Assembly (NCBI RefSeq): GCF_964213995.1
Contig: NC_135815.1
Location: 43,524,001-43,588,000 of the forward strand
DNA from: Mustelus asterias
Taxonomy: Eukaryota
Direction of reading: 5' to 3'
Length of the DNA: 64,000 nt
In this document: positions 43,863 to 46,209 of the stretch, one piece after another
Position numbering within the stretch: position 1 is the first letter of the stretch
Layout: every line of letters begins with the position of its first letter
Translations under genes and position numbers: made by a program
The notes under the pieces: model-generated
Seen by the model: only the letters and a program-made list of their open reading frames with translations
Database searches by the model: none
What the model was told of the DNA's origin: nothing

Positions 43863-44837
43863 AATTACTGGTACATTCCTGGGTGAGTGTATTTTGGATG
43901 TCACTCTTTGGACAATCTTGATGGTGCGTTCTCCTTGAGGTAACCAATTTTCCAAACACATATTTGTACTCACTCAGGATGTCATTATTCTCTTGATTAA
44001 CTTTAGATTTTCACAAGCTTTGATTTCAAGAATGGGTTTTGCATCGTTTTTCACCACGATAAATGGAAGTGCTTGAAACTGTTTTCTGTAGTTCGCTTTA
44101 AGAGTGCATTAGCCTTCTACAGCAATTTCATCACCTGTATAAGTAGACCTTTTTACTTATGTTTTAGTTAACGATTTTCCTTCGTCTATCTTACAATACA
44201 GGCTTATGGGAATGACATTTGCTGGTGCATCTGTGTCAAGCTTGAAATTCACCACCATGCTGGCAATTTTAAAACCAACCTTCCATTTGTCTTTTGAGTT
44301 TGTTGTTACTGCACCAATGAACAACATCAGTTAGTGTGTCTGGGCCCGATTTTAACAACGGGCGTGAAATCGCGGTAAAGTTGGGCGTCGGACCTATACC
44401 GCGATCTGCACCCGATTCCGAGCAGATCGCGGCTTTACCGACACCCGATTCGGGTGCGGGTCCGGGCCGCACCCGAATCGGGCGGCCCGACGATTTAAAT
44501 GCATTTGCATGCATTTAAATCGACCCAACTCTACCGCCAAATCCCACATTTTACCGTCTTCTGGCCCGTTCTGCATCCGCGCTGTAAGCGACCTGCAAAA
44601 TAAAAGTCTGAAGTCGTCGCTGCAGCTTCCGAAGAGCCGATGGAGGCTCTGACCCAGGTCATCCTCTGGTCGGGGGTGGGGGTGGGGGGGGGGGGGGGGG
44701 TGGGGGTGGGGGTTCCACTGCCAGTCTGCGGCCGATCGGTGGGGAGGGAGGGGGCGGGGGTTCCGCTGCCACTCTGCGGGCGATCCCTCCTCCCCACCGG
44801 AGGAACGAATCCCTCCTGCCGGAGTGGACGTGTGGCC

Positions 44838-44991
44838 ATGCCATCCCACAAATCCTTCAGGATGAAGCGATTCCTCGCTAAGAAGATGAAGCAGAACCGG
44901 CCGATTCCACAGTGCATCCGCATGAAAACCGGCTACAAGATCAGTACAAGTCCAAGAGGAGAACTGGAGAAGGACCAAGCTGGGCCTGTAA
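44838..44991 (+). pseudogene. RPL39: Processed 60S ribosomal protein L39 pseudogene, copy 1
   Basis: [35 protein letters not shown], then a frameshifted [18 protein letters not shown]. Intronless, 154 nt versus the 156 nt of a 51-aa CDS. Confidence 0.93.
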
Positions 44992-45103
44992 AGGGATACA
45001 CCATCACTGGGACACTACCAGCCACAGCCATCTCTCCCGCTCTCTTGCCCCTGCAGGGAAGAGTAATCTGTGGCTGGTAGTGTCCCAGTGATGGTGTATC
45101 CCT

Positions 45104-45258
45104 TTACAGGCCCAGCTTGGTCCTTCTCCAGTGTCTCCTCTTGGACTTGTACTGATCTTGTAGCTGGTTTTCATGCGGATCCACTGTGGAATCGGCCGGT
45201 TCTGCTTCATCTTCTTAGCGAGGAATCGCTTCATCCTGAAGGTTTTGTGGGATGGCAT
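45104..45258 (-). pseudogene. RPL39: Processed 60S ribosomal protein L39 pseudogene, copy 2 (inverted)
   Basis: [35 protein letters not shown], a 1-nt deletion, then [19 protein letters not shown]. 155 nt. Confidence 0.93.
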
Positions 45259-45327
45259 GGCCGCACGTCCACTCCGGCAGGAGGGATTCGTTCCTCCTGT
45301 GAGGAGGAGGGATTGCCTGCAGAGAGG

Positions 45328-45527
45328 NNNNNNNNNNNNNNNNNNNNNNNNNNNNNNNNNNNNNNNNNNNNNNNNNNNNNNNNNNNNNNNNNNNNNNNNN
45401 NNNNNNNNNNNNNNNNNNNNNNNNNNNNNNNNNNNNNNNNNNNNNNNNNNNNNNNNNNNNNNNNNNNNNNNNNNNNNNNNNNNNNNNNNNNNNNNNNNNN
45501 NNNNNNNNNNNNNNNNNNNNNNNNNNN
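45328..45527. other. Assembly gap (200 N)
   Basis: Run of N inside the right arm of the inverted repeat. Confidence 0.99.
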
Positions 45528-46209
45528 GGCGGATCCCCTGCCCCCTCCCTCCCCACCGATCGGCCACAGACTGGCAGCAGAACCCCCCCCCCTGCCGACC
45601 AGAGGATGATCTGGATCCCGCCCCCCTCCTCCTCCTCCCACTCCAGCCCCCCCCCCCAACTAATGGATGATCTGGGTCCCCTCCCCCCGACTCCCCACCC
45701 CCCCCTCCCCAACCAGAGGATGATCGTCAGAGAGCCGCTCTCTCCGCTTTCTGCTTTTTTTTTCTTTCGCGCCTGGGCGTGCTCTGTCTGATTTTTTTTG
45801 AACTGCGCATGCGCAGTTCAGAGCTCCGATCGGTCCGCCAGCGCGAAGCCCCGCCCACAGCGTGAATCAGACCAGATCCGGCAAAACGCATATGGGCGCG
45901 CTGGAAAGAGGATTCCAGGCACGGATCTATTTGACGCCCGGATTCGGCACTTAGACTCAAAATGATAAAATCAGGCCCTCTGTGTCATCATAGAATAGAA
46001 TCTCAGATCATAGAATCTGCAATTGTGCGCACTTTCTTCAATTTACACACCTTAGCAAAGTGATCTAGATGATCTGTAGGCTGGACAACTACATGGTAAG
46101 TACTCTATGGTAAGGTTTTGACATTTCAATTAAGTTTTATAATCTGTAATGTCTATGAATTGTATTCTGTAATCACAGGTTAAAATTAAATGATTCAGTT
46201 TTGGCTTGT

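Follow-up and report, generated by a model that had tools for sequence, protein, structure and literature searches.

How does a copy of a ribosomal protein gene, doubled into an inverted repeat, come to lie between the ends of a DNA transposon, and is such a structure a local accident or part of a mobile family that could act on the host mRNA? The question is raised by a locus of Mustelus asterias that lies in a stretch of 64,000 nucleotides on contig NC_135815.1, the whole of which was analysed and is referred to here as the window. The original prediction, made from the sequence of this stretch, described a Harbinger element carrying two RPL39 copies as a long fold-back hairpin and regarded it as a mobile cassette. 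We consider it probable that the locus belongs to a family of non-autonomous Harbingers whose cargo is an inverted repeat of RPL39 cDNA, spliced and lacking poly(A). The family has reached more than 1,600 sites and is likely a passenger without host function.

The element and its insertion site

The element spans positions 44342-45978, with TIR-like ends and TCT at either flank (Table 1). Four of the 14 paralogues of the flanking repeat that were compared run through the site with one TCT. Because these paralogous empty sites hold a single TCT, the element is a genuine insertion with a 3-bp duplication, and the Harbinger-type ends and the TCT target-site duplication (TSD) that had been predicted are confirmed.

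The N run inside the element is flanked by bases whose partners in the left arm are 44769 and 44767. From this symmetry of the arms, the gap probably hides about one base, and the true length of the element would be about 1,440 bp, not 1,637. N gaps occur inside three elements of the family, namely this one, L003 and L222; two of the gaps fall in the outer portion of an arm, which suggests that the palindromes break contigs.

The host site of the element is an old multicopy repeat (window 42989-44341 and 45982-46100; 123 candidates at 73-88% identity), which we take to be LTR-retrotransposon-like. A weak RVT_1 match lies within this repeat upstream of the element, and a simple-repeat insertion of about 25 nt directly follows the right TSD.

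Table 1. Features of the element at the locus, with positions in the window
Feature	Position	Strand	Basis
Left target-site duplication TCT	44339..44341	.	Single TCT at paralogous empty sites L184, L185, L193, L196
Left terminal inverted repeat, about 15-17 bp, begins GGGCC	44342..44358	+	TIR also found on elements with DDE_Tnp_4
Left Harbinger end, containing short palindromes	44342..44640	+	73% to left end of transposase-bearing L240, 278 columns
G-rich filler, non-RPL39 part of left arm	44651..44815	+	Matches host RPL39 locus at G runs only
Spliced RPL39 cDNA without poly(A), mRNA nt 21-274, from within the 5'UTR through the joined exons 1-3 into the 3'UTR	44816..45067	+	242/254 identical to the in-silico-spliced host exons
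Left copy of the RPL39 coding sequence with two 1-nt deletions	44838..44991	+	Pfam and host mRNA alignment
Hairpin loop: RPL39 3'UTR nt 235-274, bounded by natural host-UTR stem	45028..45067	+	Host mRNA alignment, predicted stem
Inverted RPL39 cDNA arm, mRNA nt 21-234	45068..45280	-	206/214 identical to host mRNA
Right RPL39 coding copy, single 1-nt deletion at exon 2/3 junction	45104..45258	-	Pfam and host mRNA alignment
Filler part of right arm, split by assembly gap	45281..45617	-	Inverted-repeat pairing
N gap, exactly 200 N, probably hiding about one base	45328..45527	.	Arm symmetry
Right Harbinger end	45775..45978	+	77% to right end of transposase-bearing L243, 204 nt
Right terminal inverted repeat	45962..45978	-	TIR comparison
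Right target-site duplication TCT	45979..45981	.	Matches left TCT across gap

The hairpin and its RPL39 cargo

The two arms (44769-45027 and 45068-45327) are identical at 250 of 260 columns. The inverted repeat resumes beyond the gap, where 44703-44766 pairs with 45529-45592 at 91% identity, and an outer part pairs 44651-44685 with 45583-45617 at 83%. The predicted fold of 44769-45327 has an energy of -558 kcal/mol (z = -48 against 100 shuffles), and the long fold-back hairpin of the original prediction therefore stands.

Pfam Ribosomal_L39 is matched in both arms. Each had been described as a complete intronless RPL39 coding sequence; this holds for the extent and for the absence of introns, but both copies are frameshifted. 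As had also been noted, the arms share one frameshift, a 1-nt deletion at the exon 2/3 junction, yet differ from each other by S/T, C/W and G/S changes and by one additional deletion in the left arm.

The host RPL39 gene was found, on contig C14, among 23 matches to the unshifted exon-junction pattern. It is not flanked by the transposon and has two introns, and its three joined exons encode the complete 51-residue eL39. Both introns are precisely absent from the cargo, which in this element is 95-96% identical to the host spliced mRNA. A foreign origin of the cargo is ruled out by this match. Among named proteins that share its N-terminal features, those of Pristiophorus and Chiloscyllium come closest; turtle and rodent proteins that match the frameshifted tail were taken as independent frameshifted gene models and were rejected as copies of the element.

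The cargo begins at mRNA nt 21 and stops at nt 274, with the host AATAAA 68 nt further on. It has neither a poly(A) tail nor a retrocopy TSD, and none of the copies examined reaches past nt 274. The 40-nt segment between the arms, which had been described as a spacer, is itself RPL39 3'UTR, because nt 235-274 are continuous with the left arm. In the host UTR, a predicted stem is closed by nt 235-238 and their reverse complement, nt 273-276; the inverted arm begins at nt 234. The RPL39-derived stem amounts to 213 bp, the remaining 160 bp or so of each arm being element filler, so that the proposed match of about 370 bp between double-stranded RNA (dsRNA) and the RPL39 mRNA has to be given up.

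Family size, transposition and relatives

The exact fold-back junction has 1,623 matches genome-wide, the frameshifted arms 1,096 and the unshifted spliced junctions 33; both arms extend into coding sequence at 243 loci. Controls with reversed patterns gave 0, and the exact-match counts are lower bounds. A TIR pair with a perfect 3-bp TSD is present at 50 of 120 loci examined, while 32 have a TIR pair but no perfect TSD and at 38 no TIR pair was found; flanks were short for some of the 70 loci at which the TSD was not recovered, and scoring was done partly by fuzzy TIR matching, so a few calls may be chance. The perfect TSDs comprise 22 different trinucleotides, mostly of the form W-N-W, with A or T at position 1 in 47 and at position 3 in 44 of the 50. 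The element is one member of a large family, and the 1,623 exact junction copies with 22 different perfect TSDs agree with the prediction of a mobile cassette. Within the hairpin family, arms diverge by 2.2% from their own consensus and right ends by about 5%.

The TIR, of about 15-17 bp, is common across copies. A DDE_Tnp_4 transposase remnant is found in L240, a 5.8-kb element (match L111, E 9.8e-37), and the ends of the hairpin subfamily are 73-84% identical to those of transposase-bearing elements; no closer autonomous partner for these ends was found among the six regions fetched. The TSDs and the dispersal of the copies suggest that the family was mobilised in trans by a Harbinger transposase. 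The ends of the hairpin subfamily differ by 15% from those of a second subfamily (A, see below), and a tree of right ends sets A apart from B and C (100/100) but does not order B and C, with a bootstrap that had not settled. An opposite-strand ORF remnant, perhaps Myb-like, is common to L238-L240, L243 and window 19755-20234 and matches no Pfam family. Public runs of six organisms and a shark metagenome contain 0.20-0.49 of the query's words, which is no more than a lead to the presence of the element across species.

Several other Harbinger elements were observed. The window itself contains one of the autonomous type at 16363-21960, with the same TIR, a TTA duplication, a broken DDE_Tnp_4 transposase (17753-18283, E 1.7e-33), a Myb-looking opposite-strand ORF without Pfam match and a reverse-transcriptase insertion at 20999-21892. 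The top-scoring Harbinger transposases, in L238 (contig C140) and L239 (C96), belong to elements whose TIRs have diverged from those of the RPL39 element; four equal-scoring transposase loci, these two included, have open frames of 411-435 aa, and are perhaps a young family. L029 and L138 have the left end at both sides and are wholly palindromic, L029 with a TTT duplication.

A subfamily with an intact reading frame

Subfamily A, with about 67 candidates at first look, has a single sense arm and an AT-rich segment of about 600 nt (members include L031-L046, L049 and L050; an example is L038 1601-2220, on the reverse strand of the locus). The origin of the AT-rich segment was not found; 40 of the 67 candidates were scored, all at 93-100%. 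The left and right ends of subfamily A are 91% and 87-93% identical, respectively, to those of the transposase-bearing L240. The reading frame is uninterrupted in 26 of 33 copies. Most copies carry M17V, and the translation of L081 equals the host protein exactly.

A naive ratio of 0.58 in subfamily A against 0.93 in frameshifted arms (P = 0.049) was rejected as evidence of selection because the search patterns admitted synonymous changes only. Coding constraint is not significant outside the search patterns (28:61 versus 64:195, P = 0.21) or at the 11 subfamily A loci found by the non-coding segment (15:29 versus 85:287, P = 0.13). These codon counts leave out L047 and L086, truncated hairpin-type copies that were first grouped with single-arm loci.

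Order of events

The shared frameshift had been read as a sign that the copy was disabled before it was duplicated. Three observations speak against this reading. First, L041 combines the fold-back junction and an intact frame with A-type ends (90% to A, 82% to B). Second, in the hairpin L078 one arm is intact and the other frameshifted. Third, both arms of the same element share 15 non-CpG variants (in 13 of 57 full hairpins), against 1.9 expected, a value reached in 0 of 10,000 shuffles. Over all sites, this sharing had P = 0.095 in the first 25 hairpins and became significant once n = 57; the N33/Y33 genotypes of the two arms are not significantly associated (P = 0.11). Since arms of one element share rare variants beyond chance, the shared frameshift cannot date the duplication. 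The exchange between arms would be patchy, because divergence within an element (4.0%) is close to that between elements (4.2%). Identical deletion junctions are found on both arms at 12 of 40 sampled junction loci (see below), and the orientation of the loop relative to the ends is 37:16 among 64 loci with a long second arm. From these patterns, the hairpin is probably older than the shared frameshift, which would have spread by copying from arm to arm.

The event order is not proven. The frameshift is also present in the subfamily A elements L172 and L182; sequence thus passes between elements, and L078 could be a convertant. The element may likewise be a passenger with another history, in which gap repair took the cDNA from an older retrocopy of RPL39 elsewhere, the frameshift came first, the duplication followed, and intact arms are later convertants. 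Such a course would explain why the cargo has neither poly(A) nor a retrocopy TSD and why both arms carry a frameshift in 55 of 57 hairpins (one further hairpin has a point change at that site); conversion between subfamilies does occur, and A and B are 15% apart in their ends but a few percent apart in their cargo, so the cargo has moved between backbones. We nevertheless regard it as rather unlikely. No free-standing retrocopy was found among 23 junction matches (22 in elements, one the host gene) or among the 30 of 33 that were fetched, L041 joins older-type ends to an intact frame and a fold-back junction, and a short antisense remnant remains at the 3' junction of subfamily A (20 nt in L049).

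Under the explanation that we prefer, the RPL39 mRNA would have been reverse-transcribed into a deleted Harbinger element, probably by LINE enzymes. The 3' end of the sense strand, lying in the 3'UTR, would then have folded back on the natural stem, with nt 235-238 pairing with nt 273-276, and served as the primer for a second strand that ran back across the cDNA and about 160 nt of flanking filler, which would produce the hairpin and drop the poly(A) end. Priming at the UTR stem is proposed because nt 234, where the inverted arm starts, adjoins the base of the predicted stem. In yeast, breaks are described that fold back by microhomology (PMC11724301), and by analogy a fold-back of this type may underlie the origin of the cargo. 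The cassette would have been amplified by Harbinger transposase supplied in trans, and exchange between the arms could have placed the frameshift and later deletions on both of them and flipped the loop. Being unstable, the long palindrome would finally have been trimmed by deletion.

Fate of the hairpin

The decay of the hairpin was followed in the first 40 junction matches on contig C1, an unselected sample. Only three loci keep two long arms. At 17, one arm is long and the other is reduced to 47 nt or less (L198 was counted as having a short second arm, from its sequence), 18 have a common deletion that leaves 29 nt of UTR, on both arms in 12 of them, and the remaining two are other short forms. 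Both TIRs and the TSD are still present at 11 of the 36 loci scored as short-stemmed, which fits real internal deletion. The family went on spreading after the coding part was lost, so mobility requires neither the reading frame nor the long stem.

The mini-hairpin derivative (L204, L207, L220, L224, L228, L233 and L237), with 29 nt of RPL39 3'UTR per arm and a 40-nt loop, has the size of a precursor microRNA. In eight of the first 30 loci (L002, L008, L009, L012, L015, L019, L021 and L024) the second arm is broken 40-44 nt from the loop and each is joined to a different sequence; this may be a breakage hot spot near the stop codon.

RNA potential and possible functions

In 57 full hairpins, a median of 45 21-mers per hairpin (range 17-89) are perfect in both arms and in the host mRNA, so the dsRNA potential is real, over 213 bp rather than 370. 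Some full hairpins might accordingly be expressed and processed into endo-siRNAs by Dicer, or supply piRNA clusters, and thus tune the RPL39 mRNA in trans, for example in oocytes. The near-perfect predicted fold of 259 bp, the abundance of perfect 21-mers and the existence of at least 243 two-arm loci are in keeping with this idea, and pseudogene-derived endo-siRNAs regulate parent genes in mouse oocytes (PMC6223193). Like the Au76/Rangap1 pseudogene loci described there, the element is a gene-derived sequence able to form long dsRNA matching its parent mRNA; for the mouse loci, in contrast, Dicer-dependent siRNAs were sequenced and an effect on the parent was measured (PMC6223193), while the RPL39 element is a mobile high-copy family and at most a candidate source.

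We think such regulation unlikely. Two long arms are rare in the unselected sample, and 243 two-arm loci stand against 1,623 junctions; the common derivative (18 of 40) has no coding part and still spread; and the substitutions in the arms are ordinary transitions and CpG decay. In the 55 long ORFs of the window, Pfam detected no host exon and only reverse-transcriptase remnants, and nothing points to read-through at the locus, which may nevertheless lie in an intron. Arm contigs in runs guessed to be RNA (X17, X18 and X19, one in X17 crossing the junction region) were set aside as evidence for or against expression, because a control, the left end of the element, is covered in X17 and X18 much as in X7, which makes these runs uninformative; host RPL39 contigs may be filtered out of the comparison. 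DNA or general repeat background explains these contigs. If dsRNA is made from the passenger family that we favour, it would arise only through read-through at some insertion sites. We infer the absence of function from decay alone, and a few functional loci among hundreds would escape notice.

Alternatively, the cargo may have aided the spread of the element: silencing by small RNAs would also strike an essential mRNA and so damp the host response, as in an epigenetic conflict proposed from maize (10.1101/777037). A family carrying this cargo at more than 1,600 loci, at 95-98% identity to the host mRNA, is in keeping with such shielding; but the single-arm subfamily with the intact frame has only about 67 candidates and many sampled loci (18 of 40) are of the derivative that lacks coding sequence, and we judge the idea quite improbable. 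More broadly, a vertebrate cut-and-paste transposon may have scattered hundreds of hairpins against an essential mRNA, a naturally mobile trigger of RNAi in which conversion between the arms would preserve their match. Copies in transcribed regions or piRNA clusters would be sources of small RNAs, by which RPL39 levels are set or the host is compelled to tolerate the element. We hold this as a doubtful proposal, and the loss of most of the stem in most copies argues against a maintained dsRNA role. Finally, that the hairpin is an assembly artefact is hardly credible: the right arm does border a 200-N gap, as it does in L003, but the arms differ at 10 of 260 columns, nearly all of the 243 two-arm loci that were examined have no N, short-read contigs of independent runs (X17, X7) span the junction region, and the TSD matches across the gap.

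Comparison with known systems

The closest parallel is found in Myotis bats, where Helitrons amplified nested retrogenes with poly(A) and TSDs, including RPLP0 in HelibatN424 (PMC4224331). In both systems, an intronless and slightly 5'-truncated copy of a ribosomal-protein mRNA entered a DNA transposon and was then amplified. In contrast to the Myotis cases, the carrier here is a cut-and-paste TIR element, the cargo has neither poly(A) nor a retrocopy TSD, and it is duplicated in inverted orientation; the copy number is also different, with more than 1,600 junctions against 6 for RPLP0 and 118 for the four Myotis cases together (PMC4224331). With respect to nested retrogenes as defined by Thomas et al. 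2014, the exons are joined without introns, but the poly(A) and the retrocopy TSD are missing.

A survey of Pack-TIRs in 100 animal genomes (Tan et al. 2021, PMC8277862) reported four multicopy cases, one example having three derived copies. As in these, host sequence lies between TIR ends and has moved repeatedly with distinct TSDs; template switching was invoked for their origin (PMC8277862). The RPL39 family has a parental copy that is not flanked by the transposon and many copies with distinct TSDs, but a capture at the DNA level is not seen. The survey discarded intronless captures of multi-exon genes, and the words 'Harbinger' and 'shark' do not occur in its main text (PMC8277862). The element works like a multicopy Pack-TIR and is not filed as one, owing to its intronless cargo.

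In the fungus Pseudocercospora fijiensis, a hAT element amplified histone H3 to hundreds of copies, which were inactivated by RIP; unlike for the RPL39 hairpin, neither a hairpin nor a cDNA origin is stated in the abstract (PMC6710886). TIRs, a 3-bp TSD and ends in common with DDE-transposase elements are as in other non-autonomous PIF/Harbinger elements, whereas the TIR is about 15-17 bp here against the 'usual' 25-50 bp (PMC9179366), and the interior is a cDNA hairpin. The main text of a preprint on retrocopies in 244 vertebrate genomes (10.64898/2026.06.26.734816) mentions neither RPL39 nor Harbinger nor DNA transposons; its supplements may list RPL39. No description of an RPL39-hairpin Harbinger family was found among the top matches in the openly readable literature. 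What is new is the type of carrier, the hairpin form and the scale; the kind, namely a non-autonomous Harbinger and a transposon-amplified retrocopy, is known.

Significance

Multicopy gene capture by TIR transposons has been reported as rare in animals (PMC8277862), and the described amplification of retrocopies by a DNA transposon concerns Helitrons, with copies in the tens (PMC4224331). In the present family, a single capture of cDNA by a TIR element led to more than 1,600 loci. The surviving intermediates record fold-back, arm conversion, loop inversion and trimming. The family is a natural experiment on the instability of palindromes and on the tolerance of a vertebrate for hundreds of potential dsRNA sources directed against an essential mRNA, for which element-specific alleles allow a direct small-RNA test. 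It also means that DNA transposition, rather than retroposition, can lie behind retrocopy counts in cartilaginous fishes.
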